DNA from: Gaiellales bacterium
GTDB taxonomy: Bacteria; Actinomycetota; Thermoleophilia; Gaiellales; F1-60-MAGs149
NCBI GenBank assembly: GCA_964203735.1
Contig: CAXNNM010000001.1
Coordinates: forward strand, 1-29,886
DNA length: 29,886 bases
Direction: 5' to 3'
The position numbers and the translations under genes were made by a program. The notes under the pieces were generated by a model. That model saw only the letters and a list, made by a program, of their open reading frames with translations, was not told the DNA's origin and made no database searches. Positions 1-23,705 of the stretch are shown in pieces (the stretch's first letter is position 1; each line of letters opens with the position of its first letter).

Positions 1-171
1 CTCGGCGGCAACGTCCGCGTCGGCCTCGAGGACAACCTCTACATCAGCAAGGGTGAGTTCGCCTCGAACGCGCAGTTGGTTGAGCGCGCAGTCACGATCA
101 TCGAGAGCCTGGGTGGCACGGTTGCCGGTCCCGACGTCGCGCGCGAGCGGCTCGGGATCACCAAGCGCTAG
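1..171 (+). CDS. 3-keto-5-aminohexanoate cleavage enzyme / beta-keto acid cleavage (BKACE, DUF849) family, C-terminal fragment truncated by the window edge
   Basis: My frame-1 translation (not in the ORF track): [56 protein letters not shown]. The [11 protein letters not shown]...SNAQLV motif is typical of the BKACE C-terminus. Confidence 0.85.
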
Positions 172-947
172 CGGTCTCGCCACTCCGGCTTGCGCTTCTC
201 GGTGAAGGCCGCCACGCCTTCAGCGAAGTCCTCTGTGCTACGAAGCAGGCCATAGGCGAGACCTTCGAGTTCCATCCCAATACTGAGCGACGTATTTGGA
301 GCCTGATTGAGAACGCGCTTGAGGGTGCGGAGCGCGACAGTGGGACGGGCCGCCATGTCGTCTGCCAACGCTGCCACAGCCGCGTCCAGCTCGGCCCGTG
401 GGTGCACCTCGGTCAGTAGGCCCCAACGATGCGCCTCATCGGCCTTCAAACGCCGGCCGCGCATGACCATGTCTTTCGCACGCCCCAGGCCAACCATCTG
501 CACGATCCGTTGAGAGCCGCCGGACCCAGGGATCATGCCAAGCGAGATTTCGGGCAAGCCAATCTGCGTATCGTCAGCCGCAATGCGAAAATCACAGGCC
601 AGCGCAAGCTCGAGACCGACACCAAGGCAATATCCATGCAACTGAGCAATCACCGGCTTAGGACATCGCTCGGGCGCAGCAACGTTGTCATGAAGGTGGC
701 TGATCCACTCGGGATCGACCTGCATAAACCCGGCGATATCACCCCCGGCGGTGAAGGCCTCATCGCCCGCTCCGCGCACCACGATGCAGCGAACGCGGTC
801 GTCGTTGCCGAGCTCTTCGAAGGCCCGGGCGATTTGGGCACGCGCCGTCACCGCGACGCGATTCATCTTGCCTGGAACATCGAGCGTCAGGGTCGCGACG
901 CGACGCGCTTCGTCGAGTTCGACGCGGAAGCCTTCGCATTCAGTCAT
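168..947 (-). CDS. hmfE: Crotonase-fold (enoyl-CoA hydratase family) protein, probable 2-oxoglutaroyl-CoA hydrolase
   Basis: Motifs [35 protein letters not shown] and [15 protein letters not shown]. It is the last gene after a Mo-hydroxylase trio and a CoA ligase, the hmfABCDE order. Start re-placed at MTECEG (ATGA overlap with the ligase stop, GGAGGAG SD upstream). Confidence 0.75.
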
Positions 948-2443
948 TGCTCCTCCTTCAGGAGTCGTCGGAGAAGCTTGCCCGAAGCGCTCTTGGGTAG
1001 CTGATCCACAAAGATATAACGGCGCGGCCGCTTGAAGCGCGCAAGCTCGGTGGCGGCTAAACAATAGGCATCTAATTGATCGTCGCTAACAGCAGCGGAT
1101 GCGACGATATATGCGGTGACGAGGTGGCCGAGTCGTTCATCGGGAGTGCCGATTACGGCTGCCTCCAGTACCGCGGGGTGACGAACGAGCAGCTCCTCGA
1201 TCTCAAGCGGGTGGACGTTCTCACCGCCAGAAATGATCATGTCGTCGATGCGACCATCAATCCAGAGGTCGCCATCTGCATCTTCGTGCGCGAGGTCACC
1301 AGGAAAGTACCAGCCGTCACGGATCTGCTTGGCATCGGCATCGGGGCGCTTCCAGTAGCCAGTGAAGGCCTCGTCGGATGCCAGCGAACAGACGACTTGA
1401 CCGACCTCTCCCGGCGCGACAACGTCAGTTGGGCTGGCCTCAAGGTCGGGTCGAACGAGACGAATCCGCTCGTTGACCCCCGGGCGACCTGCGCAACCTG
1501 GTTTTGCGCGCTGGTCGCTGTGGACGGTGAACGTGTAGATCTCTGTCGATCCATAGTGATTGACAAACACGTCGGGGTCGAACAATGCGACGCAGCGTTG
1601 GGTCAAAACACCCGTCATCGGCGCTCCCGCGTAGGCGATGCGTCGAACCGATGACACGTCACGCGGAGCCGCCTCGTGCGCCAACGCCATGTCATGAAAG
1701 AGCGTTGGTGCGAGGTAGAGGCACGTCAGTTCGTCGTGCAGCACGAGGTCGAGGGCGCGGCTGGCGTCCCACTCTTCCATCAGGTGGAGGCTGCCACCGA
1801 CCAGCGTCATCGCGAGCATCGAGCGCTGCCCCATCGTGTGGTACAGCGGCATCACCCCGAGCGTGCGTTCGCTAGGTCCGTACCCACACTGTGCAACGTG
1901 GGCGATCGACGCGGCTCGCTCGGCCGCATGGGAGCGCGGCACGCCCTTCGGATTGCCCGTCGTCCCTGACGTGTAGAGCATCAGAGACGGTGCGCACTGA
2001 TCAACATCGGTTGCCTCAGCGAGCGGAGCGGCAGCCTCGAGATCGGCGAACGGCGTACCTTTTTCGGCACCTGCGACAGCAACAATCGGGATCCCCTCGA
2101 CGAGCTCTGCGACATCAATCGAGTCAGGTTCTATCACGAGCAACGCAGACTCTGCATCCTGGACGCAGTAGTGAAGTTCGACGGGACGCAATCGCCAGTT
2201 GAGGGGGACAAAGACGCCGCCAAGCCACTGCGTTGCCCACCAGAGGACGACAGTCTCCTCGCGATTACGAAGCGCGACGGCAACACGGTCCCCTTGGCCA
2301 ACACCGAGCGCTGCCATGCCGCTGGCAACGCATTTCGCCCGTTCGAACAGTTCCGCGTAGGTGAGTCTGCGGTCGCCGTCGGTGAGAGCGACCGCCGCAG
2401 GGTGCCGCTCCGCACAGCCGATCAGATGTTCGGCAAAATTCAC
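944..2443 (-). CDS. hmfD: Acyl-CoA synthetase (ANL family), probable 2-furoyl-CoA synthetase
   Basis: Adenylation motifs LYTSGTTGNPKG, YGSTE, GRIDDMIISGGENVHP and PKSASGK. The GTG start overlaps the stop of the 2Fe-2S gene (GTGA). Substrate is inferred from operon context. Confidence 0.75.
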   Translation of the reverse strand: MNFAEHLIGCAERHPAAVALTDGDRRLTYAELFERAKCVASGMAALGVGQGDRVAVALRNREETVVLWWATQWLGGVFVPLNWRLRPVELHYCVQDAESALLVIEPDSIDVAELVEGIPIVAVAGAEKGTPFADLEAAAPLAEATDVDQCAPSLMLYTSGTTGNPKGVPRSHAAERAASIAHVAQCGYGPSERTLGVMPLYHTMGQRSMLAMTLVGGSLHLMEEWDASRALDLVLHDELTCLYLAPTLFHDMALAHEAAPRDVSSVRRIAYAGAPMTGVLTQRCVALFDPDVFVNHYGSTEIYTFTVHSDQRAKPGCAGRPGVNERIRLVRPDLEASPTDVVAPGEVGQVVCSLASDEAFTGYWKRPDADAKQIRDGWYFPGDLAHEDADGDLWIDGRIDDMIISGGENVHPLEIEELLVRHPAVLEAAVIGTPDERLGHLVTAYIVASAAVSDDQLDAYCLAATELARFKRPRRYIFVDQLPKSASGKLLRRLLKEEQ

Positions 2444-2922
2444 AGCGCCCGCTCCGACTCGGGCGGCAAACCGGCCGCGTCGGCAATCGCTTCGATGATC
2501 CCGACGTACCCCGTGCAGCGGCAGAGGTGCCCAGACAGCAGGTCTGTGATCGCCGCCCGACTCGTCAGTTCACCACGCTCCAGTGCCTCGGTGGCGGTGG
2601 CAAGAATGCCCGGCGTACAGAATCCACACTGCAACCCGTGGTGCGTCGAGAAGGCGACCTGCAAGGGGCTGAGCGTGCCCGCCGGGTCTGCTAATCCCTC
2701 AACGGTAAGGATCTCACAGCCAGCGACCTGAACGGCGAGCAGCAGACAGGAACGTGAGGCGACTCCATCGACGAGGACGGTGCAAGCACCACAGACGCCG
2801 TGTTCACAACCAACGTGGGTGCCACGCAAGCCAAGGTCGTGACGAAGGACGTCGGAAAGCAGGCGGCGATCTTCGATGTCGCGTCGGTACGTGCGACCAT
2901 TGACCGCGAACTCGACATTCAT
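2440..2922 (-). CDS. hmfC: CoxS/XdhA-type 2x[2Fe-2S] small subunit, probable furoyl-CoA dehydrogenase subunit
   Basis: GCEHGVCGACTV, SC, QCGFC and HLCRCTGY cysteine sets; ATGA overlap with the FAD subunit. Confidence 0.8.
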   Translation of the reverse strand: MNVEFAVNGRTYRRDIEDRRLLSDVLRHDLGLRGTHVGCEHGVCGACTVLVDGVASRSCLLLAVQVAGCEILTVEGLADPAGTLSPLQVAFSTHHGLQCGFCTPGILATATEALERGELTSRAAITDLLSGHLCRCTGYVGIIEAIADAAGLPPESERAL

Positions 2923-3758
2923 GCCAGTGCCTCCGCGAGCGCTCGAACGACGAGCGTGCCGATAAGCGATCGTCGGTAGGCCGATGGTGCGTGCGGCGAA
3001 TCAGGCGGATCCACCGACTCAGCGGCGAGCGCGCGTAGTTCGTTCGGTGGCACACCGGCCACGATCGCGGCCTCAACCATGGTTAGGCGAATAGGACGAT
3101 CGGACACTGCCCCAGCCGCAACCCGTGCTTCGATGACGTCGCCGTCCTCTATGTGCACCGCGAGCGCGACGATCGCCATGGCGTAGTCGCCGTGGCGTTG
3201 GGCAACTTCGCCAAAGCCAAAGTGCCAACCAGCACCGAGCACTGGGAAGCGCACTGCGGTCAGAATCTCGTCGTCACCGAGTGACGAGGTGAGGTACGAA
3301 ACGAACAGTTCGGCTGCTGATACGTGACGGGTGCCGTCGAGACCGACAACGACCGCCTCGCCGTCAAGACACACCAGCACGCACGGCAATTCGGCTGCCG
3401 GATCGGCGTGGGCGATCGTGCCACCGACCGTGCCGCGGTTACGTGTCGTCGTGTGGCCGACGTGTGGCAGTGCAAGATCCAACAGTGGACACGCTTCGAG
3501 CGCCGCGCGATCGCGCTCAAGCGCACGTTGCGTGGTCATGGCTCCGACAGTCACGGCCGTGTCCGTCACCTCGATACCGACGAGCCCGGCAACGTCACGA
3601 AGATCCACCAGCACATCGGGAGTGGCGAGTCGAAAGTTGAGCAGAGGCATCAGTGACTGGCCCCCTGCCACGACCTTCACGTACCCGCCCGTAGCGAGCA
3701 GCCGACAGGCCTCGTCAATCGTTGACGGTCGCTGGTAGACGAGTGGCGCGGGCTTCAT
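2919..3758 (-). CDS. hmfB: CoxM-type FAD-binding medium subunit, probable furoyl-CoA dehydrogenase subunit
   Basis: MKPAP start (ATGA overlap with the large-subunit stop), AGGQSLMPLLNFR and RNRGTVGG motifs. No Cys-rich [4Fe-4S] insertion. Confidence 0.8.
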   Translation of the reverse strand: MKPAPLVYQRPSTIDEACRLLATGGYVKVVAGGQSLMPLLNFRLATPDVLVDLRDVAGLVGIEVTDTAVTVGAMTTQRALERDRAALEACPLLDLALPHVGHTTTRNRGTVGGTIAHADPAAELPCVLVCLDGEAVVVGLDGTRHVSAAELFVSYLTSSLGDDEILTAVRFPVLGAGWHFGFGEVAQRHGDYAMAIVALAVHIEDGDVIEARVAAGAVSDRPIRLTMVEAAIVAGVPPNELRALAAESVDPPDSPHAPSAYRRSLIGTLVVRALAEALA

Positions 3759-6181
3759 TCCGCCTCTCCCTGCAACAGTGCCCAAACGCGCGCGGGCGTG
3801 AGTGGAATCGGGACCGCGTCTATGCCAATCGCGTCGGCAACAGCATTTGCGAGACAGGCCGGTGCGCTCATCGTATTGCCCTCACCAAGCCCTTTGGCAC
3901 CGAGCGGCGTAGTCGGCGACGGCGTCTCGATCGCGCGGTGGCGTACCGGGGGCAACTCGGTCGCGGTCGGTGGTAGGTAATCGAGGAACGAGGCCGTCAT
4001 CAGATTGCCGTCCTCGTCGTAGCGGTGCTCTTCGAGGAGCGCAGCCCCGAGACCGTGAGCGAGTCCGCCCATCATCTGCCCGTCGGCAATCAGCGGGTTA
4101 AGAATCCGGCCAGCGTCGTGCACGGTCGCGTAGCGGAGAACCTGCACCTGTCCGGTCTCGGCATCAACCTCGACGATGGCGACATCGGCAATGAAGCCAT
4201 AAACCGCCGAGGTGTTGCAGCGATCATCTGCATCTGGCTCGGGTAGCGGGATCGTGTAGGTCGCTGTCAGAGCGAGTCCACCGACATCGCCGACAGCGCC
4301 GGTGCCGGCCGGGTTCCAGTGCGCGCCGCCCGCCAAACGCCTGATGCTGATCGAACGCTCTCCATCGTCGGAGGATCGAGCCTTCCCATCGCTCAACACG
4401 ACTGCCTCAGGTGGGCACCCAAGCTCATGCGCGGCGAGCGTCTTCAGGCGGTCGGCGAGAAGTGTCGCCGCGTGGTGAATCGCGCTTGCGACGACCGCCG
4501 AGAACCGCGAAGAGTAGTTGCCACTCGAGACGGTCCAGGGGTTCGCCGAGGTATCGGCCTCGGTGCGAACGTCAACATCCTCGAGCGACACTCCGAGAGC
4601 GTCAGCGACAATCTGCGCTGCAACGGTCCGATGGCCCTGCCCTTGGGGTGTTGATGTAAACCGTACGGTGACCCCCCCGTGCGGCCCCATCGCGATCGAG
4701 ACGCCTTCGCTATTGCCCGTCTTGGGGAGGCCTCTCGCACGCACCTCTGCGGGCTGAGCAAGGCTGATGTAGCCCATGTTCGAGACACTTGGCTCGACGA
4801 CGACCGCTAGGCCGATCCCGACCAACCTCCCCTGCGCCCGCTTCGCATCCCGAAAGGCCAGTAGCTCGTCGTAGTCGGCAAGCTCGAGGGCCTCGTCGAA
4901 ACACCGCAGGTAGTCCCCAGAGTCGTAAATGGCTCCAGCCGCCGCGCGGTATGGCATCTGCTCCGAGCGAACCAGGTTACGGCGGATCAACTCGGCGTGG
5001 TCGAGGCCTAACTCGCCAGCCGCGATCATCATCGTACGCTCGAGTGGGTAGTACAGCTGGGGTCCACCGAAGCCACGATTGAGCCCGGTTGGAGCCCGAT
5101 TGGTCACCACGACACGCGAGCGTACGGCAAGATTTTGTACGTCGTAGGCACCTGTCAGGCAGCCGTGCATGCGGTACAGCGTCGCTGGTTCGGGTGCGCG
5201 TACGTAGGCGCCGACGTCATCGAGTAGGTCCAAGTCGAGTGCAACGAGTTTGCCATCGGCATCGAAACCAGCCGCGATCTCGGTCAGGCGCTCAGTCGCA
5301 GACGATGAAGCGAGCAAGTGTTCGCCGCGGTCCTCCGTCCAGCGCACCGGAATGCCAAGCACCCGACTGACCGCCGCCATCAGCACGACGTAGACAAAGA
5401 CTGCGGACTTGATGCCGTAGGACCCACCGCTTGCCGGCGGCGTGCAGAGGCGCAGCTTCGACGCGGGAATACCAAGTGCAGCAGCCGCGACACCGTGCAG
5501 CGTGAATGGTCCTTGAAAATTCGCCCACGCATCAACGCCACCCCGCGACTCGTCCCAGTTAGCGATCACGCCGTAGGTCTCGACGGGCGTCGCGCTGTTG
5601 CGCGGGTGTCGAAACCGACGGCGCACAACAAGCACCGCGGTGGCAAATGCCTGCTCGGGGTCGCCATAGCGAAACGTGCGGTCCGAGACAACGTTGGAGG
5701 TCGTCGCGGCGTGTAAGCGGATTGCCGTTGGCTCGGCCGCGCTTGCCGGATCGGCGACGACCGGCTGCGGGTCGTAGTCGACGACCACGAGCGCCGCAGC
5801 GTCCTCTGCAACGTAGCGATCCCGTGCCACCACGACCGCGACCGGTTCGCCGGCAAAGCGCACGCACTCGTACGCCGCTGGTCGATAGTCGATCGGCACG
5901 TCGAGCACCGATGGAAATGGCTGGGTAATCGCAGCGATCTCAGCTCCGGTAACGACGCCGATGACGCCATCCACAGCCAGCGCGGCAGAGACATCAATCG
6001 ACCGAATCTGAGCGTGTGCGAAAGGTGAGCGCACAATGGCTGCATGCCCTGCATGTGGCAGGGGATCAATGTCGTCGATAAACCACTCGCGACCTCGCAG
6101 CAACGGGTCATCCTCAACGCGAGTAATGCCGCGTCCGACCCAACTTGGCTTGGTCTCGGTTGCTTCCATCGGTTCCGACAT
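3755..6181 (-). CDS. hmfA: Xanthine-oxidase-family molybdopterin large subunit, probable 2-furoyl-CoA dehydrogenase large subunit
   Basis: Motifs VRFAGEPVAVVVA, GGSYGIK, active-site loop NRGFGG, QGQGHRT, SSGNYSSR and KGLGEGN (catalytic Glu). The start is uncertain: 6232 GTG, 6181 ATG or 6169 ATG. I chose 6181 because 6232 lies inside the predicted larB promoter. Confidence 0.75.
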   Translation of the reverse strand: MSEPMEATETKPSWVGRGITRVEDDPLLRGREWFIDDIDPLPHAGHAAIVRSPFAHAQIRSIDVSAALAVDGVIGVVTGAEIAAITQPFPSVLDVPIDYRPAAYECVRFAGEPVAVVVARDRYVAEDAAALVVVDYDPQPVVADPASAAEPTAIRLHAATTSNVVSDRTFRYGDPEQAFATAVLVVRRRFRHPRNSATPVETYGVIANWDESRGGVDAWANFQGPFTLHGVAAAALGIPASKLRLCTPPASGGSYGIKSAVFVYVVLMAAVSRVLGIPVRWTEDRGEHLLASSSATERLTEIAAGFDADGKLVALDLDLLDDVGAYVRAPEPATLYRMHGCLTGAYDVQNLAVRSRVVVTNRAPTGLNRGFGGPQLYYPLERTMMIAAGELGLDHAELIRRNLVRSEQMPYRAAAGAIYDSGDYLRCFDEALELADYDELLAFRDAKRAQGRLVGIGLAVVVEPSVSNMGYISLAQPAEVRARGLPKTGNSEGVSIAMGPHGGVTVRFTSTPQGQGHRTVAAQIVADALGVSLEDVDVRTEADTSANPWTVSSGNYSSRFSAVVASAIHHAATLLADRLKTLAAHELGCPPEAVVLSDGKARSSDDGERSISIRRLAGGAHWNPAGTGAVGDVGGLALTATYTIPLPEPDADDRCNTSAVYGFIADVAIVEVDAETGQVQVLRYATVHDAGRILNPLIADGQMMGGLAHGLGAALLEEHRYDEDGNLMTASFLDYLPPTATELPPVRHRAIETPSPTTPLGAKGLGEGNTMSAPACLANAVADAIGIDAVPIPLTPARVWALLQGEAE

Positions 6182-6191
6182 AGTAAACACG

Positions 6192-6208
6192 AATCCGCTG
6201 AGCGGAAC
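6192..6208. promoter_or_regulatory. Candidate operator 1, AATCCG-CTGAG-CGGAAC (core palindrome TCCGCT-G-AGCGGA at 6194-6206)
   Basis: Palindrome in the hmfA/larB divergent intergenic region; 14 of 16 positions match the site upstream of larA. Confidence 0.65.
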
Positions 6209-6214
6209 AAGATC

Positions 6215-6244
6215 TTGCGTTTGTTGGCCCACCCACCGTAGACT
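6215..6244 (+). promoter_or_regulatory. Putative sigma70/SigA promoter for the larB operon, TTGCGT-N18-TAGACT
   Basis: -35-like TTGCGT at 6215-6220 and TAnnnT -10 at 6239-6244. The larB ATG at 6254 has no SD, so the mRNA would be near-leaderless. Confidence 0.45.
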
Positions 6245-6253
6245 CCCGCCACG

Positions 6254-7036
6254 ATGGATCCCGTAAAGCGAACAACCGATCCACTCACCATGCTGCTCGA
6301 GAGCGTGCGCGACGGTTCGCTCGGTCTTGACGAGGCTACGCGAGAGCTACGCGAGCTGCCCTTTCGCAACCTCGGCTTCGCTCGCGTCGATAACCACCGC
6401 GAGCTGCGACAGGGCGCACCTGAGGCAGTGCTCGCCGAAGGCAAAACCCCGCACGAGGTCATCGCAATCATGGCCGCTCTCGCTGAGGGAACATCGTCGA
6501 GCGTCCTCGTGACACGCGTTGATGAGGCCTGTTTTGAGGCCGTGCTGACAGCGTATCCCGATGCGCAATTCCATCGGCGTGCCCGCTGTATTTGGCTCGA
6601 ACGTGCGCTCCCCGAACCACTTGGACGCGTGGCGATCGTCTCGGCCGGTACGAGCGATGGACACGCTGTTCACGAGGCGCGCATTCGCGCAGAACTCATT
6701 GGCACCCACGTCGACACCTATGAGGACGCTGGCGTTGCAGGCCTACACCGCCTTCTCGCCGTCCTTCCCGAACTCGAGGATGTGGACTGCGTCATCGTCT
6801 GTGCCGGTATGGATGCCGCGCTCGCCAGCGTCGTCGGTGGTTATGTCGCGGCTCCCGTGATTGCCGTGCCGACGAGTACCGGCTACGGCGTTACTTTCGG
6901 TGGCGTGGCCGCATTGCACGCGATGCTCGCTTCATGTGCGGCCGGCGTCGCTGTCGTCAATATCGACGATGGCTTCAGCGCCGGGACGATCGCGGCCCGA
7001 ATTGCCCGACGAGCCGCTGGCGAGGAGAGTGTCTGA
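6254..7036 (+). CDS. larB: NPN cofactor biosynthesis NaAD carboxylase/hydrolase LarB
   Basis: FARVDNHRELRQGAPEAVLAEGKT, AGTSD, AGMDAALASVVGG, AVPTSTGYG and MLASCAAGVAVVNIDDGF (PurE-like C-terminal domain). Confidence 0.93.
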   Translation: MDPVKRTTDPLTMLLESVRDGSLGLDEATRELRELPFRNLGFARVDNHRELRQGAPEAVLAEGKTPHEVIAIMAALAEGTSSSVLVTRVDEACFEAVLTAYPDAQFHRRARCIWLERALPEPLGRVAIVSAGTSDGHAVHEARIRAELIGTHVDTYEDAGVAGLHRLLAVLPELEDVDCVIVCAGMDAALASVVGGYVAAPVIAVPTSTGYGVTFGGVAALHAMLASCAAGVAVVNIDDGFSAGTIAARIARRAAGEESV

Positions 7037-8280
7037 TGGGACACGACGGACACGACGGACACGACCACGACCACAATCACAAACACCACGCAACGGTGCT
7101 GCCGACAGCACGGGGCATCGTCTATATCGATGCCATCGGAGGAGCCGCTGGCGACATGTTGCTCGCCGCACTGCTCGATGCTGGTGCACCACTCGAGTCG
7201 GTCGAGGCCGCCGTCGGCTCGCTGGTACCGGGGCTCACGGTCACGGTTGGCCACACCGAACGACACGCGATTGGTGCCCGCACGGTCACCATTGTCGGCC
7301 CCGATGAAGGCCACGTCCATCGCACCTGGCGTGATGTCCGCGCATTGCTTGACGCGGCCGACCTCGCGCCGCGAGCTGCCGCCCGCGCACACCGCGCCTT
7401 CGAGTTGCTCGCTCACGCCGAAGGTCGTGTTCACGGCCAAGACCCCGAGGATGTACATTTTCACGAGGTTGGAGCCATCGACGCGATCGCCGACATCGTT
7501 GGCGTCTGTGCCGCGCTAGAGGCCCTCGGAGCCGACCGTATTGAAGCGGGTCCACTCCCGCTTGGCCGTGGGGTCACGGCGGCCGCGCACGGGCAGATCC
7601 CACTGCCAGCACCGGCAGTGCTTGAGATTCTCCAAGGCTCCCCGATTGCTCCGAGTCTCGTTCAGGGCGAGACCGTGACGCCAACGGGGGCCGCCCTGGT
7701 CGCCGCCGTCGTCGACGCGTGGGGTGGCGTTCCCGCGCTGCGACTCGGAGCGACCGGGTACGGGGCTGGTCAACGCGACACGGCCGAGGTTCCAAACCTC
7801 GTGCGCGTCCTCGTCGGCTCGCCGCTTGCTTCCCCGCGCGACGAAATCGCGATTGTCGAGGCGACAATCGATGATCTCAACCCAGAACTCGTGCCCGACG
7901 CGCTCGACGATGTGCGCAGCGCCGGCGCGCTCGATGTCTGGACCACTCCCGTAGTCATGAAACACGGCCGCCACGGCGTGACCATCACCGCGATCGCGCG
8001 CCCCGTCGATCGAGAGGCCGTCGCAACCGCGCTGCTGCGTTCGACGAGTACCCTCGGCGTCCGCATCACCGACGGACACCGCATCGAACTTGACCGCGAC
8101 TTCATCTCGGTGGAGGTCCACGGCCACGACATCCGTGTCAAGCGCGGGCTGCTCGATGACGCCATCGTCAACGTCGCACCGGAGCACCGCGACTGTGTCG
8201 TTGCGGCGCGGGCACTCGGCGTGCCCGTCAAGGAGATCTGGTCGGCAGCGCTCGCGCAGGCTCACGGTGCCGGACAATGA
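7036..8280 (+). CDS. larC: NPN cofactor nickel insertase LarC, single uninterrupted ORF with an N-terminal His-rich extension
   Basis: YIDAIGGAAGDMLLAALLD, VHFHEVGAIDAIADIVG, ETVTPTGAA, EATIDD, STLGVR and PEHRDC motifs. Start re-placed at 7036 (TGATG overlap with larB). Confidence 0.92.
   Translation: MGHDGHDGHDHDHNHKHHATVLPTARGIVYIDAIGGAAGDMLLAALLDAGAPLESVEAAVGSLVPGLTVTVGHTERHAIGARTVTIVGPDEGHVHRTWRDVRALLDAADLAPRAAARAHRAFELLAHAEGRVHGQDPEDVHFHEVGAIDAIADIVGVCAALEALGADRIEAGPLPLGRGVTAAAHGQIPLPAPAVLEILQGSPIAPSLVQGETVTPTGAALVAAVVDAWGGVPALRLGATGYGAGQRDTAEVPNLVRVLVGSPLASPRDEIAIVEATIDDLNPELVPDALDDVRSAGALDVWTTPVVMKHGRHGVTITAIARPVDREAVATALLRSTSTLGVRITDGHRIELDRDFISVEVHGHDIRVKRGLLDDAIVNVAPEHRDCVVAARALGVPVKEIWSAALAQAHGAGQ
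7039..7089 (+). repeat. Short tandem repeat (GGACACGAC x3, then CACGAC/CAC units) encoding GHDGHDGHDHDHNHKHH
   Basis: Read directly at 7039-7089. Confidence 0.85.
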
Positions 8281-9134
8281 GCACGCCCCCCTCTCCCCAC
8301 GCACTGACACGGCTCAGCGACCGGATCGTCGAACGGGTCGCCGGGCTCGATGGGGCTGTAGTTGCGCTGTCAGGTGGTGTCGATTCGTCGGTGGTCGCCG
8401 CCTTGGCCGTCCGTGCCCTCGGCGAGCGAGCGCTCGCCGTAACTGCTGTCTCTCCGGCGCTCGCCACGGGCGAGCTCGATGGCGCCGCCAGCGTGGCTCT
8501 CACCGTTGGCATCCGGCACGAGGCGATTATGACGAATGAGCTGGCGCGCGCCGGCTATCGCGCGAACGGTTCCGACCGCTGCTATCACTGCAAATCCGAG
8601 CTCTACGACAACCTCGCTGCGATCGCCCAGCAGCGCGGCTACGCAGCCGTGCTGTCGGGCGCGAACGCGGATGACCTTGGCGACTGGCGCCCCGGCCTAA
8701 TTGCAGCGGAGGAACACGGCGTACTGCATCCGTTGGTTGAGTTTGCCGTTGACAAAGACCAGGTGCGGCTGCTCGCGGCACACCTGGGCGTACCGAACGC
8801 CAAGAAGGTCGCCAGCCCATGCCTAGCCTCGCGCATCCCCCACGGTACGCCGGTCCACGCGGATACATTGGCGCAGATTGATCGTGCCGAGCAGGCTCTG
8901 CACGGACTCGGACTCGGACCACTGCGGGTTCGTCACTACGACGAGCTAGGTCGCGTCGAATTGAGCGAGAATGACCTCGCCCGTCGCGATCTGCTTGAGC
9001 CAGCGATCGTCGCGGCCGTCACGGTCGCCGGCTACACCAGCGTGGAGATCAGTGCCACGCCCTTTCGGTCGGGAAGTTTGACGCGCCAATTCGTCAGCAG
9101 CCTCCCGATCGCGCAGTGCGTGGAGAACCGCTGA
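8277..9134 (+). CDS. larE: NPN cofactor sulfur transferase LarE (PP-loop ATPase)
   Basis: PP-loop SGGVDS, DRCYHCK, NADDLGDWRPG, SPCLASRIPHG and LRVRH motifs; ATGA overlap with larC. Confidence 0.93.
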   Translation: MSTPPSPHALTRLSDRIVERVAGLDGAVVALSGGVDSSVVAALAVRALGERALAVTAVSPALATGELDGAASVALTVGIRHEAIMTNELARAGYRANGSDRCYHCKSELYDNLAAIAQQRGYAAVLSGANADDLGDWRPGLIAAEEHGVLHPLVEFAVDKDQVRLLAAHLGVPNAKKVASPCLASRIPHGTPVHADTLAQIDRAEQALHGLGLGPLRVRHYDELGRVELSENDLARRDLLEPAIVAAVTVAGYTSVEISATPFRSGSLTRQFVSSLPIAQCVENR

Positions 9135-9856
9135 TGGGACTGTTCGATCCCATTGACGAGCACCTCTCGACCGTGGGTGGTGGTTGGGTTTTTGTCCTCG
9201 TTGTCGCAGTCCTGCTCGGACTGCGTCACGCAACGGATCCCGATCACCTGACAGCGTTGCTCTCCCTGCGCCTGAGAGGCAGCCAGCGACCACCCCATCG
9301 ACTGGGCCTCGCCTGGGGCGCTGGTCATGCGGTGACGATGATCCTCGTCGGAGTGCCCTTGATCCTGTTCGTTGGACAACTCCCCACTGCGCTGCAGCAG
9401 GGGCTTGAGGTGGCTGTCGGCATACTCATCATCGTGCTCTCAATCCGTGTGCTGTGGGGACTCGTAGAGCTGAGGGCCCACGCGCACGAGCACGCCCATG
9501 GTGACGGCGTCGTACACTCTCACCCCCACGTCCACGGTGCCGGCGCGCACGCGCATGGCATCCGATCGACGCGGAGCGCCTTCTCGATTGGTCTGCTCCA
9601 TGGGGCCGCTGGCAGCGCCAGCATCGTCGCACTCATTCTCACGCGCCTCGAGAGCCCACTGCTCGCCTGCCTCTCACTCGTGGTCATCGCCGGCTTCTGC
9701 ATGCTCTCGATGGCCTGCTGCTCGTGGGTGCTCTGCCGGAGCCTTGACGGTAGCGAGCGACGCGTTGATCAACGTTGGATTGCTGGCGTCGGCGGCAGCC
9801 TCGCGCTCTGCTTTGGCTTCGTCTACGCCGCCTCCGCGGCGGGTTTCGTCGCATGA
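9134..9856 (+). CDS. Nickel/cobalt transporter (NiCoT-like, UreH/SodT type) membrane protein
   Basis: GLRHATDPDH resembles the NiCoT RHAxDxDH signature; also WGAGHAVT, a His-rich loop and GLLHGAAGS, with several hydrophobic segments. Start re-placed at 9134 (TGATG overlap). Confidence 0.8.
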   Translation: MGLFDPIDEHLSTVGGGWVFVLVVAVLLGLRHATDPDHLTALLSLRLRGSQRPPHRLGLAWGAGHAVTMILVGVPLILFVGQLPTALQQGLEVAVGILIIVLSIRVLWGLVELRAHAHEHAHGDGVVHSHPHVHGAGAHAHGIRSTRSAFSIGLLHGAAGSASIVALILTRLESPLLACLSLVVIAGFCMLSMACCSWVLCRSLDGSERRVDQRWIAGVGGSLALCFGFVYAASAAGFVA

Positions 9857-10629
9857 ACGACGAAGTCACTCGTAGCGCGACGAGCCTGGCATCCGTCGAC
9901 CGCTCACTGCGATTACTCGAGGAGCTCGCACGCTCTGGCGATCTCGGCGTCACCGAACTTGCCTCACGGATTGGCGCTGGCAAGGCAACCGCCCATCGGC
10001 TAGTCAAGACGCTCGAGGCGCGCGACTACGTCGTCCAGAACACCAATTCGACGTATCGGCTCGGGCCTCGCTGCCTCTACCTCGCCCAAGGTGTCGAAGC
10101 CGGCCTCGACCTGCGCAGCGCAGCACTGCCGATCCTCGCGGCCCTGCGGGATCGCACCGGCGAGACGGCACAGTTGACCGTCTTCGATGAGGGCGACGTC
10201 GTCTACGTCGAGCAGGTCACGTCCCGTAAGCCCGTGCGTAGCGTTGGGGAAATTGGTGGCCGAGCGCCCGCGCATTGTGTGTCCGGCGGCCTAGCCCTGC
10301 TCGCCTTTGGGCCACCGGAGAGTGTCGCCTACCTTACCGCCCGTGGCGAATCTTCCCCTACCCCAACGGCGAAGCAACGCTGGCTCGACCTCGATGCCGA
10401 GCTCTCGACAATCCGTACAGCAGGCTATGCGGTCAACCGCGGCGGTTTCCAGTCAGAGGTCGGTGGCGTGGCTGCACCAATTATGGACGTCAACGGCATC
10501 GCCATCGCAGCCATCAGCACCTGCGTTCCTCTGTTTCGCCTCGATGCGGTTGGTGTCACCACGCTCGCGGAGGCCGTCACCTCTGCCGCCCGCGAAATGA
10601 GCGTGCTACTCGGGGCCGACGCCGGATAG
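9853..10629 (+). CDS. IclR-family transcriptional regulator
   Basis: N-terminal HTH SVDRSLRLLE...GVTELASRIGAGKATAHRLVKTL, then YRLG, TGETAQL, and C-terminal GYAVNRGG...GVAAPI. Start at MNDEV (ATGA overlap with the transporter stop). Confidence 0.93.
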   Translation: MNDEVTRSATSLASVDRSLRLLEELARSGDLGVTELASRIGAGKATAHRLVKTLEARDYVVQNTNSTYRLGPRCLYLAQGVEAGLDLRSAALPILAALRDRTGETAQLTVFDEGDVVYVEQVTSRKPVRSVGEIGGRAPAHCVSGGLALLAFGPPESVAYLTARGESSPTPTAKQRWLDLDAELSTIRTAGYAVNRGGFQSEVGGVAAPIMDVNGIAIAAISTCVPLFRLDAVGVTTLAEAVTSAAREMSVLLGADAG

Positions 10630-10653
10630 TTCCTAGCCAGACCACCTGAGGGG

Positions 10654-10935
10654 CTATCGAGACTGATACCCAGGACGGCGCGGCACTTTAACGCCGGCAG
10701 CCGCAATTTGCTCCTCCGTTGGTCCGTTGTCGGCGAGTGACCGGAAGGCCTCAAGTACTGCACGCGGCGAGTTGCGGTGCCGGATCGCAGCCATCGTCAA
10801 GGGCTCGGAGAGAGCACCACTGCAGTGCGCGCACGGCCAGTACAACCGTCGCGAAAGTTCGGCCGCCGTACCGGGATATTTTTTGAAGATATCGACCAGT
10901 AACGTCGAGCCAGTGATGCTGAACTCGGTGGTCAC
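10654..10935 (-). CDS. Small CxxC protein resembling DUF1858 (hybrid-cluster-protein-associated redox disulfide domain)
   Basis: ITGSTLLVDIFKKYP...WPCAHCSGALSEPLTMAAIRH follows the I..T...I..KYP...CxxC..A..E.L..AA..H pattern. The GTG start is 8 bp after the larA-like stop on the same strand. Confidence 0.6.
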   Translation of the reverse strand: MTTEFSITGSTLLVDIFKKYPGTAAELSRRLYWPCAHCSGALSEPLTMAAIRHRNSPRAVLEAFRSLADNGPTEEQIAAAGVKVPRRPGYQSR

Positions 10936-10943
10936 GTGTCGGC

Positions 10944-12368
10944 CTAGTGCGTCGGGATCTCCACAGGCGGCGGCTCGTTCGGCGTCATCCGAATCATGTG
11001 GCGCGCGAGCTGGTAGCGGGCGAAGGGCAAGATCACGACCTTCGCATCCGGCCCATGCTTTTCGAGCGCACGATCGAACGTCTCTTGGAGCGAGGTGCTA
11101 GCGGCAATGCCGATCTCCGCCGCCATTGCGAGGTTCTCTTCCAGCGTCACCATTGTTAGGTGCTTGCGCGTCATCACCTCGTAGATTGGCACCCAGATGC
11201 AGCCGGCCCACATCTGGATCGTGCGCGAATGGATATCGCGCAGCACGCGCTCGTAGCTTGCGGTCGTCGGTGGCATATATGGCGTCATTAGATCCATCAA
11301 AGCGAGACCCGGAAAATCACCAATCGCTGTGTGTACGCCGGGCGATGGCGAGCAATAAATGAGATCCCCGCCGTCCTTCAGAATCGGGTCAGCGCTCATG
11401 CAACCCCAGCCGGTGTGGAAGAAAAGATGGTCGGTCGGCGCAAAGACGCCGCAGACCACGATGTCCGCCTGCCCGTGTTCGGCGACCGGGCTATCGTAGG
11501 CATAGATCTCGTTGAATCGCGTGATCGCTGCGACATGGGCCTCGGGGTGACGCCCGAAGATCAGCTCGATCGCGCGCCCGCGGGTGTCGAGAATCGCATT
11601 GAGTGTGCAGTCAAGGCCACACATCGTCGCCACCTCGTCGATATCTGCCCGCATCGGCCCGCCGAGCGCACCGTAATGCGTCTGCGGTGAGGGGACGAAG
11701 GCTCCATGGTTGGACTCGATCGTCTCGTCGGACACGACGCCTGGCATGATCAACTTGCCACCACCGCCCGCGCCCCAATGGTTTGACTGCGCCTGACCGA
11801 TCGTGATCGTGACATCACGCTTCATCACTTCGTTGTGGAGCCAGACCGGTGTGCCACGCGATGAGACGCCGACGAAGGAGTAATTATCCACTTCGCGTGG
11901 ATCGTTCTGAAAGAACGGAATTCCCATTTGCTTCATGCGGGCGAGGTTCTCGCGGCCGATCTTCTGATCAATGTCCGACTCCGACATTGGGAAGACCTTG
12001 CCGTTGGCACAGACGACGACCGCATCCGTGACACCAGCCGCCTCGAGCTCGTCAAAGATGGCGGGCAAGATCTTCATCTGCGGCGTCGGCCGGAACTGAT
12101 TGTCGATCACCACAGCGACGGACTTGCCACCCTTGATCAACTCGGCGAACGTCGGCCCACTCTGCGGGTTGCGAAGTGCGTGTCGCGCAGCCTCTAGCGT
12201 ACTCGCAGTGGGCTCCGGCTCGTTGGGACGAATATCTGCCATCAGGTTCTTGAGCGGGAACGACAACTCGAGGGTATCGCGATAGACCAGCGTGTCGTCA
12301 TCGGCCGACCCAATCGTCAGCGGATCGATCGACTCGTACGGAATGATGGTGTGGTGTAGCTCGGTCAT
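10944..12368 (-). CDS. larA: Divergent LarA-family (lactate racemase superfamily, DUF2088) nickel-pincer protein, substrate unknown
   Basis: LarA-like blocks: ALRNPQSGP, VAVVIDNQFRPTP, GVSSRGTPVWL, GGGGKLIMPG, ETIESNH, LNAILD, ADIVVC, LKDGGDLI and AKVVILPFA. Start at ATG 12368 (GGGAG SD); the upstream GTG at 12401 overlaps the predicted -10 box. The family call is firm; lactate racemase activity is not claimed. Confidence 0.85.
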   Translation of the reverse strand: MTELHHTIIPYESIDPLTIGSADDDTLVYRDTLELSFPLKNLMADIRPNEPEPTASTLEAARHALRNPQSGPTFAELIKGGKSVAVVIDNQFRPTPQMKILPAIFDELEAAGVTDAVVVCANGKVFPMSESDIDQKIGRENLARMKQMGIPFFQNDPREVDNYSFVGVSSRGTPVWLHNEVMKRDVTITIGQAQSNHWGAGGGGKLIMPGVVSDETIESNHGAFVPSPQTHYGALGGPMRADIDEVATMCGLDCTLNAILDTRGRAIELIFGRHPEAHVAAITRFNEIYAYDSPVAEHGQADIVVCGVFAPTDHLFFHTGWGCMSADPILKDGGDLIYCSPSPGVHTAIGDFPGLALMDLMTPYMPPTTASYERVLRDIHSRTIQMWAGCIWVPIYEVMTRKHLTMVTLEENLAMAAEIGIAASTSLQETFDRALEKHGPDAKVVILPFARYQLARHMIRMTPNEPPPVEIPTH

Positions 12369-12399
12369 CGGGGGCTCCCGCGCGTAAGTAGGTAGGTGC

Positions 12400-12429
12400 A
12401 CGCTAGCGTCCGAGAGGCCCTCTGGTCAA
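12400..12429 (-). promoter_or_regulatory. Putative promoter for the larA-like unit, TTGACC-N18-TAGCGT
   Basis: Read on the mirror copy at 17458-17487; same TTG-N18-TAGnnT layout as the larB promoter. Confidence 0.5.
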
Positions 12430-12442
12430 CATTTCGGGCGCT

Positions 12443-12459
12443 GTTCCGACCAGCGGAAC
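12443..12459. promoter_or_regulatory. Candidate operator 2, GTTCCG-N5-CGGAAC perfect-arm palindrome
   Basis: gttccgaccagcggaac at 12443-12459. On the larA sense strand it reads GTTCCGCTGGTCGGAACA, matching operator 1. Confidence 0.65.
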
Positions 12460-12608
12460 GATCGAGGCTCGTCGCCGCGACTGCGCTCGCCGCCGCCGGT
12501 GAGCATTCGGCCGTACCGACGCAGAGTCGGCCGCCGCGTTACGGGCCTGATCAATGCTGTACAAGGGGCGGTGCAGTCCGCGCGCGAAAGGCGTGATTGT
12601 GACACATG

Positions 12609-12640
12609 CGTACGCTATTTTCAGTGCGACACGTACGCTA
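12609..12640 (+). promoter_or_regulatory. Direct repeat CGTACGCTA x2 upstream of vapB, candidate autoregulatory operator
   Basis: Copies at 12609-12617 and 12632-12640, each containing the palindrome CGTACG, ending 19 bp before the vapB ATG. Confidence 0.45.
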
Positions 12641-12659
12641 ACTTTGAGGCATAGAAACG

Positions 12660-12884
12660 ATGGCCAAGAAACACACCTCGCTCTACATCGACGAGCAACT
12701 GCTCGCCGAAGCGGAACGCCTGCTCAGCACGAGCGGACCCACAGAGACCGTCAATCGCGCGCTCACCATGGCGGTGGAGCTCGAGCTGCGACGAGGGCTG
12801 CTCTCGACCCCGTTCGGTATCACGGAGGAAGAGCTCCAGGACATGCGACACCAGCGCGGAGCGTACGAGCGACCGGTCGTATGA
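12660..12884 (+). CDS. vapB: VapB-type antitoxin (RHH-like N-terminus)
   Basis: KHTSLYIDEQLLAEAERLL...TETVNRAL resembles actinobacterial VapB; 74 aa; ATGA overlap with a PIN-domain gene. Confidence 0.85.
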   Translation: MAKKHTSLYIDEQLLAEAERLLSTSGPTETVNRALTMAVELELRRGLLSTPFGITEEELQDMRHQRGAYERPVV

Positions 12885-13294
12885 GTGCTCTGATCGACAG
12901 CTCCGGCTGGATCTGGGCCGAACGCAATCCCTCTGCTGCGGCGACAGGCGACCTGCTAACGGAGATCGAACACGGCACAGCGGGAACCTGCGACCCGGTG
13001 CGTCTCGAACTCCTACGCGGCGTCTCGAACCTGCGCCAGTTCGACACGCTCGACGCTCGACTTTCCGCTCTGCCAGATACCCCAGTCGAACGTGAAGCCT
13101 TCCGGCTTGCTGCCGATATCCAACGTGCACTCGCCAAACGCTCCGGATCCAAGCATCGATCGATCCCTGTTGTCGACTTGCTGATCGCTGGCGCCGCAAT
13201 CGCCGCCGAACAGGTCATCATCCATCGCGATCGAGACTTCGAGACGATCGCGGCGATCACCCATCAGCCCCTGCGCTGGCTCGGACCCCGCTAG
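12881..13294 (+). CDS. vapC: VapC PIN-domain ribonuclease toxin
   Basis: LIDSS, VRLELLRG, VVDLLIAGAA and HRDRDFETIA provide the PIN acidic residues. True start is ATG 12881 (137 aa), not 12554. Confidence 0.92.
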   Translation: MSALIDSSGWIWAERNPSAAATGDLLTEIEHGTAGTCDPVRLELLRGVSNLRQFDTLDARLSALPDTPVEREAFRLAADIQRALAKRSGSKHRSIPVVDLLIAGAAIAAEQVIIHRDRDFETIAAITHQPLRWLGPR

Positions 13295-13303
13295 CCGGCC
13301 GAG

Positions 13304-14902: not shown

Positions 14903-14984
14903 GGGTGGGTTGTAGCAGGGTTGTTGGGGGGTTGGGGTCCCCCGGGGGACCCCAACCCCCCAACAACCCTGCTACAACCCACCC

Positions 14985-16583: not shown

Positions 16584-16592
16584 CTCGGCCGG

Positions 16593-17006
16593 CTAGCGGG
16601 GTCCGAGCCAGCGCAGGGGCTGATGGGTGATCGCCGCGATCGTCTCGAAGTCTCGATCGCGATGGATGATGACCTGTTCGGCGGCGATTGCGGCGCCAGC
16701 GATCAGCAAGTCGACAACAGGGATCGATCGATGCTTGGATCCGGAGCGTTTGGCGAGTGCACGTTGGATATCGGCAGCAAGCCGGAAGGCTTCACGTTCG
16801 ACTGGGGTATCTGGCAGAGCGGAAAGTCGAGCGTCGAGCGTGTCGAACTGGCGCAGGTTCGAGACGCCGCGTAGGAGTTCGAGACGCACCGGGTCGCAGG
16901 TTCCCGCTGTGCCGTGTTCGATCTCCGTTAGCAGGTCGCCTGTCGCCGCAGCAGAGGGATTGCGTTCGGCCCAGATCCAGCCGGAGCTGTCGATCAGAGC
17001 ACTCAT
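16593..17006 (-). CDS. vapC: Mirror copy: VapC PIN toxin
   Basis: Mirror of 12881-13294. Confidence 0.9.
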   Translation of the reverse strand: MSALIDSSGWIWAERNPSAAATGDLLTEIEHGTAGTCDPVRLELLRGVSNLRQFDTLDARLSALPDTPVEREAFRLAADIQRALAKRSGSKHRSIPVVDLLIAGAAIAAEQVIIHRDRDFETIAAITHQPLRWLGPR

Positions 17007-17227
17007 ACGACCGGTCGCTCGTACGCTCCGCGCTGGTGTCGCATGTCCTGGAGCTCTTCCTCCGTGATACCGAACGGGGTCGAGAGCAGCCCTCGTCGCA
17101 GCTCGAGCTCCACCGCCATGGTGAGCGCGCGATTGACGGTCTCTGTGGGTCCGCTCGTGCTGAGCAGGCGTTCCGCTTCGGCGAGCAGTTGCTCGTCGAT
17201 GTAGAGCGAGGTGTGTTTCTTGGCCAT
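17003..17227 (-). CDS. vapB: Mirror copy: VapB antitoxin
   Basis: Mirror of 12660-12884. Confidence 0.83.
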   Translation of the reverse strand: MAKKHTSLYIDEQLLAEAERLLSTSGPTETVNRALTMAVELELRRGLLSTPFGITEEELQDMRHQRGAYERPVV

Positions 17228-17427
17228 CGTTTCTATGCCTCAAAGTTAGCGTACGTGTCGCACTGAAAATAGCGTACGCATGTGTCACAATCACGCCTTT
17301 CGCGCGCGGACTGCACCGCCCCTTGTACAGCATTGATCAGGCCCGTAACGCGGCGGCCGACTCTGCGTCGGTACGGCCGAATGCTCACCGGCGGCGGCGA
17401 GCGCAGTCGCGGCGACGAGCCTCGATC

Positions 17428-17444
17428 GTTCCGCTGGTCGGAAC
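17428..17444. promoter_or_regulatory. Mirror copy: candidate operator 2 (GTTCCGCTGGTCGGAAC)
   Basis: Mirror of 12443-12459. Confidence 0.63.
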
Positions 17445-17518
17445 AGCGCCCGAAATGTTGACCAGAGGGCCTCTCGGACGCTAGCGTGCACCTACCTACT
17501 TACGCGCGGGAGCCCCCG

Positions 17519-18943: not shown

Positions 18944-18951
18944 GCCGACAC

Positions 18952-19233: not shown

Positions 19234-19257
19234 CCCCTCAGGTGGTCTGGCTAGGAA

Positions 19258-23633: not shown

Positions 23634-23678
23634 CGTGGCGGGAGTCTACGGTGGGTGGGCCAACAAACGCAAGATCTT

Positions 23679-23695
23679 GTTCCGCTCAGCGGATT
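23679..23695. promoter_or_regulatory. Mirror copy: candidate operator 1
   Basis: Mirror of 6192-6208. Confidence 0.63.
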
Positions 23696-23705
23696 CGTGT
23701 TTACT

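Follow-up and report, generated by a model that had tools for sequence, protein, structure and literature searches.

The window analyzed in this study, a stretch of 29,886 nucleotides from the metagenome-assembled genome (MAG) of a Gaiellales bacterium (GCA_964203735.1, contig CAXNNM010000001.1), carries a minus-strand operon resembling the furoate-catabolic hmfABCDE genes, a divergent larB-larC-larE kit for making the cofactor nickel-pincer nucleotide (NPN), and a LarA-like gene paired with a small gene for a CxxC protein. The carrier is an uncultured Thermoleophilia bacterium, a soil or lake actinobacterium, and all gene results refer to window bases 1–14943. The LarA-like/CxxC pair is very probably a functional part of the hmf-type pathway, and on balance bases 168–12459 are read here as one catabolic unit, in which the hmf operon and the NPN kit would be combined with a LarA-like hydride-transfer step on a furanic precursor. 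The precise role suggested for the LarA-like protein, hydride transfer on such a precursor to deliver a 2-carboxylate to the CoA ligase of the operon, is put forward tentatively.

The evidence carrying this reading is the conserved neighborhood of the LarA-like gene. One genome per species was scanned (185,579 species), yielding 342 loci with a relative of the LarA-like protein; the neighborhood counts cover the best 80 of these, against which 14 window proteins were run by tblastn, and a filter on third-codon-position GC (GC3) was applied in clustering the neighboring genes to guard against long antisense open reading frames (ORFs) in high-GC DNA. The best 80 loci all come from Actinomycetota MAGs (Thermoleophilia/Gaiellales and Acidimicrobiia), save a few records titled only ‘bacterium’ and one that is apparently mislabelled. 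Of the 64 loci whose downstream sequence extends for 8 kb or more, 61 carry hmf-like genes downstream of larA-CxxC on the same strand, 53 of them with three or more hmf genes and 8 with one or two. In most relatives the hmf operon itself opens with the larA-like and CxxC genes, and in 16 loci, where the operon reads larA-cxxC-hmfABCDE, the start of hmfA follows larA at a distance below 900 bp. When 150 genomes of the class were sampled, the same 6 carried LarA-like and HmfA-like genes, on one contig and 0.3–6 kb apart, and the other 144 carried neither; a phylum-wide sample of 400 genomes held only 1 carrier and was too sparse for co-occurrence. These counts serve as description and not as statistics, because relatedness inflates them. 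The recurrence of LarA homologues with hmf genes, on which the initial annotation had staked its proposed LarA-furan pathway link, was thus found, and the conserved neighborhood supports that link.

Two rearranged loci are informative as well. The first, in genome G145 (L093, C11:184000–203000), has the order iclR-hmfD-hmfA-hmfE-hmfB-hmfC-larA with divergent larBC; its hmfC encodes an iron-sulfur subunit fused to CoxG (391 aa), the larA-like gene starts 27 nt later, and no CxxC gene was detectable within the 19 kb of the locus. The second belongs to a cultured organism, Saccharopolyspora subtropica (L101, GCA_014646075.1), whose hmfD-A-E-B-C(CoxG)-MFS genes are divergent from larA-cxxC-larE-larB. 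Its LarA-like protein is 66% identical to that of the window, PadR and AraC regulators stand in place of IclR, and no larC homologue was detected in the locus, which also adjoins the remnants of a type I-E CRISPR-Cas locus. Two independent rearrangements therefore keep the larA-hmf link, and chance adjacency is excluded for practical purposes.

The CxxC gene lies within 700 bp downstream of larA on the same strand in 71 of the 75 loci with enough sequence. Its product, which had no Pfam match in the window scan, has the conserved core wPCAHCGGA..EPL..AA.RH...P..VLeAFRAL, of which the CAHC motif and the EPL..AA.RH segment are kept in 75 orthologues. The CxxC protein is the obligate partner of the LarA-like gene. 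Other neighbors recur in subsets of loci: a LIV-type ABC transporter set divergently upstream (21–29 loci), a glyoxalase-fold protein (16 loci), FAA-hydrolase and short-chain dehydrogenase/reductase genes just upstream of larA (about 12 Acidimicrobiales loci), a GlcD/GlcF-type oxidase set between cxxC and hmfA (11 Acidimicrobiales loci), and genes for a zinc-dependent alcohol dehydrogenase (ADH) and an aldehyde dehydrogenase (ALDH) directly upstream of larA in some actinobacterial loci. None of them is as constant as cxxC and hmfABCDE. An ‘amidase’ was also tried as a conserved neighbor and dropped, being in Acidimicrobiales the housekeeping GatA beside GatB.

The LarA-like protein has more than 1,200 homologues. 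The closest of them make up a very compact family whose members are about 472 aa long; among 12 of these, each 70–84% identical to the query, the mean column identity is 83%. The NCBIfam LarA-type models gave 182 bits for LarAH6, the best match, against a cut-off of 500, 145 against 462 for LarAH5, 139 against 540 for LarAH10, and 139 against 460 for LarA, so that none reached its equivalog cut-off. An AlphaFold2 model built from a 12-sequence alignment had a mean predicted local distance difference test score (pLDDT) of 69, falling below 50 at residues 195–223 and 343–390; owing to this low pLDDT at the active-site loops, it was used for fold assignment only and not for active-site geometry. 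With this model, the top 19 Foldseek matches in the PDB were all LarA-family proteins (template-modeling score, TM, 0.52–0.76), indicating the two-domain LarA fold.

Residue correspondences were taken from a profile alignment to Lactobacillus plantarum LarA. The NPN anchors of that enzyme are kept, namely the phosphate-binding Arg75 (Arg93 in the window protein), the tethering Lys184 (Lys205, in GGGGK), and the nickel ligand His200 (His221, in ESNH), and Arg93, Lys205, and His221 are invariant in the 12 family members. The catalytic histidines, by contrast, are replaced: His108 corresponds to Val125 and His174 to Asn196. Asn90 occupies the position of Asp72, and Phe317/His318/Trp321, within the invariant PTDHLFFHTGWGCMSAD block, take the place of the substrate triad Tyr294/Gln295/Lys298. 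Plausible substitutes stand one residue away from these three replaced positions: Lys124 (for His108), His197 (for His174), and Asp89 (for Asp72). The protein likely binds NPN, since it retains the anchor residues and larBCE accompany its gene, and judged from its residues it is not likely to perform classical two-base racemization of 2-hydroxy-carboxylates. The initial annotation had called it an atypical LarA, and this holds: with scores of 139–182 bits against cut-offs of 460–540 and both histidines lost, it is not an ordinary lactate/malate racemase.

Compared with the LarA racemases and epimerases (L. plantarum 5HUQ, Isosphaera pallida 9EIA, Mar2 6D6Z; PMC7583248, PMC11770544), the LarA-like family has in common the Lar_N domain, the fold (TM 0.6–0.76), the anchors, and larB/larC/larE, and it differs by the lost histidines, the Asp72-to-Asn change, the Phe/His/Trp triad, the obligate CxxC partner, and the acyl-CoA/Mo-hydroxylase gene context. 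A single-histidine LarA subfamily (Blautia wexlerae, Streptococcus plurextorum; 9Q2U/9Q3J) keeps His108, has Asn for His174, and is linked to carbohydrate genes; it is without a known substrate, and non-racemase chemistry has been suspected (PMC12611868). Asn at the His174 position is common to both, whereas the LarA-like family has Val at the His108 position too, and the single-histidine structures were weak matches of the LarA-like protein (E=1e-13 to 1e-15, TM 0.55). As the single-histidine subfamily retains His108, the LarA-like family appears to be a further, distinct departure. Precedent for non-racemase NPN chemistry is given by NphT, an NPN-dependent hydride transferase of the aldo-keto-reductase fold that performs intermolecular hydride transfer and disproportionation on sugars (PMC13524815). 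NphT was also discovered through larBCE neighborhoods, but it has the aldo-keto-reductase fold and not that of LarA, and is without a furan or acyl-CoA pathway link.

The NPN kit of the window is complete at curated thresholds, as had been proposed, with LarB, LarC, and LarE all above their NCBIfam equivalog cut-offs. Of the 64 loci having 8 kb or more of downstream sequence, 24 carry at least two of larB, larC, and larE. Loci with larBCE close by usually have them between cxxC and hmfA and facing the other way, which is also the arrangement of the window. The window LarE has a CxxC pair (DRCYHCK) and a third cysteine (SPCLASR). A [4Fe-4S]-dependent catalytic type of LarE has been described in Thermotoga, in contrast to the single-cysteine sacrificial type (PMC9283937), and by its cysteines the window LarE resembles the former rather than the latter. 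The fourth gene of the lar operon had been annotated as a nickel transporter; an HX4DH motif (HATDPDH) and a His-rich loop fit this assignment, while the Pfam NicO score stays below the cut-off, so that only a NicO-like putative transporter can be named. This gene is kept at its operon position only in L002. In L001, a Thermoleophilia MAG contig 95% identical to the window, it is gone from the lar operon, and a 74%-identical copy lies between the genes for a PIN-domain protein and an amidohydrolase (compared spans, window 9178–9784 and L001 7400–8435), as if the nickel transporter gene had recently been rearranged locally.

No curated models exist for the Hmf proteins, and the identity of the minus-strand operon was tested by tblastn of the large subunit against plasmids and by synteny. 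Megaplasmids of Cupriavidus and Paraburkholderia, as well as Geobacillus pHTA426, carry HmfA-like genes of about 50% identity; the window protein is 51% identical, across 98% of its length, to the HmfA-position proteins of Cupriavidus and Geobacillus, and the HmfE-like protein is 57% identical to its Geobacillus counterpart. The locus of Cupriavidus necator NH9 pENH92 (L083) has the order LysR, Mo subunit, FAD subunit, FeS subunit, AMP-ligase, ECH protein, MFS transporter, and directly adjoins genes of the hmfFGH type for a UbiD decarboxylase, UbiX, a TTT binding protein, and a GMC oxidase. We take this layout to be that of the two hmf clusters. Window HmfA, B, C, D, and E match the C. necator NH9 proteins collinearly and over their full length at 51, 40, 61, 50, and 52% identity, respectively, and the length of the HmfB-like protein (279 aa) matches that of HmfB (271 aa), its score being far below the 4-hydroxybenzoyl-CoA reductase beta model. 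Since the five proteins match the C. necator cluster in order and at full length, the name ‘hmfABCDE-like’ given in the initial annotation is accepted by homology.

The Hmf orthologues act in a pathway that begins with ligation of the carboxylate to CoA. The Mo enzyme then hydroxylates C5 with water, ring opening gives 2-oxoglutaroyl-CoA, and 2-oxoglutarate is freed by the ECH protein. Relative to the Cupriavidus basilensis HMF14-type hmf pathway (Koopman et al. 2010; review PMC3223595), compared via C. necator NH9, the window has the same five proteins in the same order and translationally coupled, but its HmfA is without CoxG, an IclR replaces the LysR regulator, and there are neither hmfFGH nor an MFS transporter, relatives having a LIV-type ABC transporter instead. 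The window operon is moreover joined to the LarA-like/CxxC pair and larBCE, all of which have no counterpart in Proteobacteria. CoxG is fused to HmfA in Cupriavidus (residues 852–989), is a separate gene in Geobacillus, and is fused to HmfC in G145 and S. subtropica, unlike the window HmfC; no CoxG/SRPBCC domain was found in the window or in the operons of the 80 loci searched. The CxxC protein was considered as a stand-in for the missing CoxG, which fits G145 (CoxG, no CxxC), and was rejected on S. subtropica, which has both. Two other identities of the Mo enzyme were also rejected. For 4-hydroxybenzoyl-CoA reductase the scores were 367 against 995 (TIGR03194) and 77 against 405 (TIGR03195), and for aerobic CO dehydrogenase the large-subunit models gave 438–486 against 950–991, with no AYRCSFR/AYRGAGR motif. 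The generic xanthine dehydrogenase-family models were likewise missed by a wide margin in the NCBIfam scan of the window.

The two transcription units also appear to be tied by regulation. The palindrome GTTCCG-N5-CGGAAC, allowing at most 1 mismatch, occurs 16 times in 1.49 Mb (window and loci), and in 10 of these cases it precedes larA or hmfA. In L001, L002, and L007 its distance to larA is about 90 bp, and in six other loci it sits in the spacer between iclR and hmfA, about 60 bp ahead of hmfA. IclR orthologues stand beside lar or hmf genes in L001, L002, L004, L005, L008, L009, L012, L081, and G145. IclR thus probably acts through a common operator-like site on two promoters, that of larA and the divergent one of hmfA/larB, making them one regulon. 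The end coordinate of the initial annotation, 12459, is not the end of a gene but that of the operator-like palindrome upstream of larA.

Beyond the family itself, an exhaustive HMMER search showed that identity falls sharply, from 65% or more among members to 34–43% in a few full-length relatives, most of which still have an FHTGW-type motif. In L096 and L097, a LarA-like gene (39% identity) is followed directly by genes for aldehyde:ferredoxin oxidoreductase (AFOR), polyferredoxin, GcvH, and lipoate ligase; this metagenomic contig also encodes a NiFe hydrogenase. L094, L095, L102, and L103 represent a sister LarA clade of 39–46% identity that spans Bacteria and Archaea. Its recurrent gene set comprises a ferredoxin/BFD protein, an unannotated protein of about 480 aa, ModD-like (QRPTase-fold) and MoaB-like genes, an FAA-hydrolase-family hydratase, a DmpG-type aldolase, a DmpF-type acetaldehyde dehydrogenase, IclR, and TRAP or BenE transporters, sometimes with AFOR and an iron-dependent ADH, and one sister-clade larA comes after a ThiS/MoaD-like gene. 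We know of no described pathway that matches this set; possibly it serves to process a five-carbon (hetero)cyclic acid anaerobically. A theme common to the sister clades, either aldehyde/carboxylic-acid chemistry or a partnership with Mo/W-pterin enzymes, is a lead and not a result.

For the window, the following scheme is proposed. The NPN-loaded LarA-like enzyme would oxidize or dismutate a furanic precursor, for example furfural or furfuryl alcohol, to the 2-carboxylate feeding the CoA ligase, its tightly bound nicotinamide-like cofactor acting as in nicotinoprotein aldehyde dismutases, and the CxxC protein would be a redox or metal-handling helper. The 2-carboxylate would then be ligated to CoA, the heteroaryl-CoA hydroxylated at C5 by the Mo enzyme, the ring opened, and the thioester hydrolyzed to 2-oxoglutarate. 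Such a feeding step is preferred because the lower pathway is chemically complete without it, because the carboxylate-binding residues became aromatic, because the sister clades sit with aldehyde-oxidizing enzymes, and because NPN-dependent intermolecular hydride transfer has a precedent in NphT (PMC13524815). The zinc-dependent ADH and ALDH genes found directly upstream of larA in some actinobacterial loci also speak for it. Several points weigh against it. A dismutase or oxidase needs a hydride acceptor and none is apparent here, and the ADH/ALDH neighbors are found in a minority of loci only. The known furoate pathway is chemically complete without any hydride shuffling, and Proteobacteria run it without LarA. 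The one-residue shifts at Lys124, His197, and Asp89 could still form a working two-base site, the AlphaFold confidence being low exactly at the active-site loops. Furoate as the substrate is suggested by orthology (about 50% identity and synteny), and another five-membered heteroaryl-2-carboxylate is possible. Further, the best-scoring characterized relatives of the LarA-like protein are malate racemases (Mar2, E=4e-31; likewise the LarAH6 model), whose substrates are dicarboxylic 2-hydroxyacids.

This last point would suit a role at the lower end of the pathway, where the LarA-like protein would work on a five-carbon 2-hydroxy or 2-oxo acid and channel side products into 2-oxoglutarate, for example by interconverting the 2-hydroxyglutarate enantiomers or by redox isomerization of 2-hydroxy-5-oxopentanoate, 5-hydroxy-2-oxopentanoate, or 2,5-dioxopentanoate. 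The oxidase set between CxxC and hmfA in 11 Acidimicrobiales loci is of a type acting on D-2-hydroxyacids, and FAA-hydrolase genes recur near larA in Acidimicrobiales and, together with a 2-oxopentenoate hydratase, an aldolase, and an acetaldehyde dehydrogenase, in the 43%-identical sister clade. However, both the catalytic histidines and the Tyr/Gln/Lys substrate residues are replaced, GlcDEF and FAA hydrolase occur in subsets of loci while hmfABCDE is near-universal, and 2-oxoglutarate is already the pathway end product, so that this role is regarded as unlikely. The 40–61% identity to proteobacterial Hmf also leaves room for a different heteroaryl-2-carboxylate, such as hydroxyproline-derived pyrrole-2-carboxylate or thiophene-2-carboxylate, with the LarA-like protein abstracting a hydride from an alpha-amino or imino acid and so making or processing the substrate. 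Amine substrates would tolerate the loss of both general-base histidines, nitrogen-handling neighbors do exist (Amidohydro_3 in the window, RidA and amidase in some loci), and Xaa-Pro-peptidase/creatinase-type genes flank sister-clade members. Such neighbors are sporadic, however, the Acidimicrobiales ‘amidase’ being GatA and the amidohydrolase being kept only in L001 and L002. We know of no CoA-dependent Mo-hydroxylase route for pyrrole-2-carboxylate, and the probability given to this alternative is low.

A similarly small, slightly lower probability is assigned to the pair being an accessory of a pyranopterin enzyme, which would serve the Mo hydroxylase by relaying electrons or hydride or by aiding its maturation. 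The clade and its sisters do stand repeatedly beside Mo/W-pterin genes (HmfABC, AFOR with polyferredoxin, ModD-like, MoaB/MogA-like, and ThiS/MoaD-like), and the actinobacterial operons are mostly without the CoxG domain present in Cupriavidus and Geobacillus. But such a function has no precedent, the coupling of NPN, a two-electron hydride carrier, to Fe-S centers is not obvious, S. subtropica and G145 have CoxG plus the LarA-like protein and so show no simple replacement pattern, and the association may only reflect the substrates that pterin enzymes handle. The source annotations, which name the family ‘nickel-dependent lactate racemase’, would fit an ordinary lactate/malate racemase and its cofactor genes lying by chance beside an unrelated catabolic operon. 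That reading is very improbable, given a linkage kept across two classes and three gene orders, a common operator motif, equivalog thresholds missed about 3-fold, and lost catalytic residues. The hydride-transfer step on a furanic precursor stays the preferred role.

The literature search found no paper linking LarA or the nickel-pincer cofactor with furoate, furfural, furoyl-CoA, molybdopterin, xanthine dehydrogenase, or AFOR enzymes. The 25 LarA context groups of Desguin 2020, the founding study of the superfamily, include no CoxL/M/S, CaiC/CaiD, AOR, or MoaD COGs, and MoaA with group 7 only. The parts of the system are of known kinds, while three features appear undescribed: the histidine-less subfamily, the CxxC protein paired with it, and the constant position of this subfamily at the start of a furoate-type operon. 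The wider proposition is a serious possibility, falling somewhat short of probable: the LarA subfamily would represent a new NPN reaction class (furanic aldehyde/alcohol hydride transfer or redox isomerization) and an integral, unrecognized step of furan catabolism in Actinomycetota, and the ‘FHTGW’ clade would be a general partner of Mo/W-pterin pathways.

The features are collected in Table 1. Gene content came from Pfam and NCBIfam scans, and start codons were chosen to fit the N-termini of homologues. The initial annotation had placed 12 genes; all were located as claimed, with every named gene recovered by the Pfam and NCBIfam scans. It had also described 1–4 bp overlaps at the operon junctions and a divergent spacer of about 72 bp. 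As measured, the hmfA/B, B/C, C/D, and D/E junctions each overlap by 4 bp (ATGA or GTGA), the lar-operon overlaps are 1 bp (larB/C), 4 bp (C/E), 1 bp (E/nicO), and 4 bp (nicO/iclR), and the spacer between hmfA (ATG at 6181) and larB (ATG at 6254) is 72 bp. The minus-strand larA-like and CxxC genes, with 8 bp from the larA stop to the CxxC start, converge on the plus-strand lar operon.

Table 1. Coordinates, strand, and supporting evidence for the features of the hmf-lar locus (window positions).
Feature	Position	Strand	Evidence
hmfE-like ECH-family protein, putative 2-oxoglutaroyl-CoA hydrolase	168..947	-	Pfam ECH_1 E=1e-53; ATG at 947
hmfD-like AMP-forming acyl-CoA ligase	944..2443	-	Pfam AMP-binding + AMP-binding_C; GTG start
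hmfC-like 2x[2Fe-2S] small subunit	2440..2922	-	Pfam Fer2_2 + Fer2
hmfB-like FAD subunit, 279 aa	2919..3758	-	Pfam FAD_binding_5 + CO_deh_flav_C
hmfA-like molybdopterin large subunit, 808 aa	3755..6181	-	Pfam Ald_Xan_dh_C, MoCoBD_1, MoCoBD_2
Degenerate operator-like palindrome copy, in 72-bp divergent spacer	6193..6208	.	14/16 bases = reverse complement of larA-upstream site
larB (NPN biosynthesis: carboxylase/hydrolase)	6254..7036	+	NCBIfam LarB equivalog 255 bits vs. cut-off 175
larC (fused LarC1+LarC2, CTP-dependent nickel insertase)	7036..8280	+	LarC1 200 vs. 90, LarC2 123 vs. 50 bits; Pfam Ni_insertion E=4e-124
larE (ATP-dependent sulfur transferase)	8277..9134	+	NCBIfam TIGR00268 276 bits vs. 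cut-off 150
NicO/RcnA-like putative Ni/Co transporter	9134..9856	+	Pfam NicO 22.5 bits vs. cut-off 27.7
IclR-family regulator	9853..10629	+	Pfam HTH_IclR + IclR_C
DUF1858-like CxxC protein, 93 aa	10654..10935	-	TIGR03980 weak match, 19.9 bits vs. cut-off 44.95
LarA-like putative NPN enzyme, 474 aa	10944..12368	-	Pfam Lar_N (PF09861) 112 bits vs. cut-off 23.3
Operator-like palindrome GTTCCG-N5-CGGAAC upstream of larA	12443..12459	.	Perfect 6+6 inverted repeat

Two further ORFs follow beyond the larA promoter region. Window 12554–13294 holds an ORF of 246 aa whose VapC-type PIN domain is confined to residues 113–236 (71 bits against a cut-off of 80); probably it is a small antitoxin gene merged with vapC, i.e., a toxin-antitoxin pair between larA and the amidohydrolase gene. 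The latter (13304–14902) encodes a 532-aa Amidohydro_3 protein, kept beside the system only in L001 (96% identity) and L002 (83%). L002 (CAMDVX010000025.1) is titled a Bifidobacterium breve MAG and carries an 86%-identical, high-GC, Thermoleophilia-type locus of identical gene order, and its title probably stems from a mistake in binning or labelling of the source record.

The window is its own reverse complement with 0 mismatches and makes up the entire contig C1 of a MAG of 1.0 Mb in 155 contigs (61% complete). L001 is collinear with window bases 329–14920 and then runs 5.7 kb further. The fold-back point, 14943/14944, lies inside a G/C-rich intergenic hairpin, 23 nt past the last L001-matching base (14920) and about 40 nt upstream of the start codon (14902) of the amidohydrolase gene. 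Because the near-identical L001 runs on normally past the fold-back, the mirror half, 14944–29886, is judged to be an assembly artefact in the deposited MAG, the real bases being 1–14943.

Few NPN-dependent reaction types are known: racemization and epimerization of 2-hydroxyacids, joined in 2026 by the shuttling of hydride between molecules by an enzyme of unrelated fold. A LarA subfamily tied to a chemically well-understood pathway offers a testable route to a new NPN reaction, with a substrate shortlist derived from the operon, and the cultured carrier S. subtropica makes genetics and growth tests feasible. If the proposal is true, the microbial degradation of furfural and furoate would gain a nickel requirement along with a missing or alternative step; this degradation matters for the detoxification of lignocellulose hydrolysates and for soil carbon turnover.

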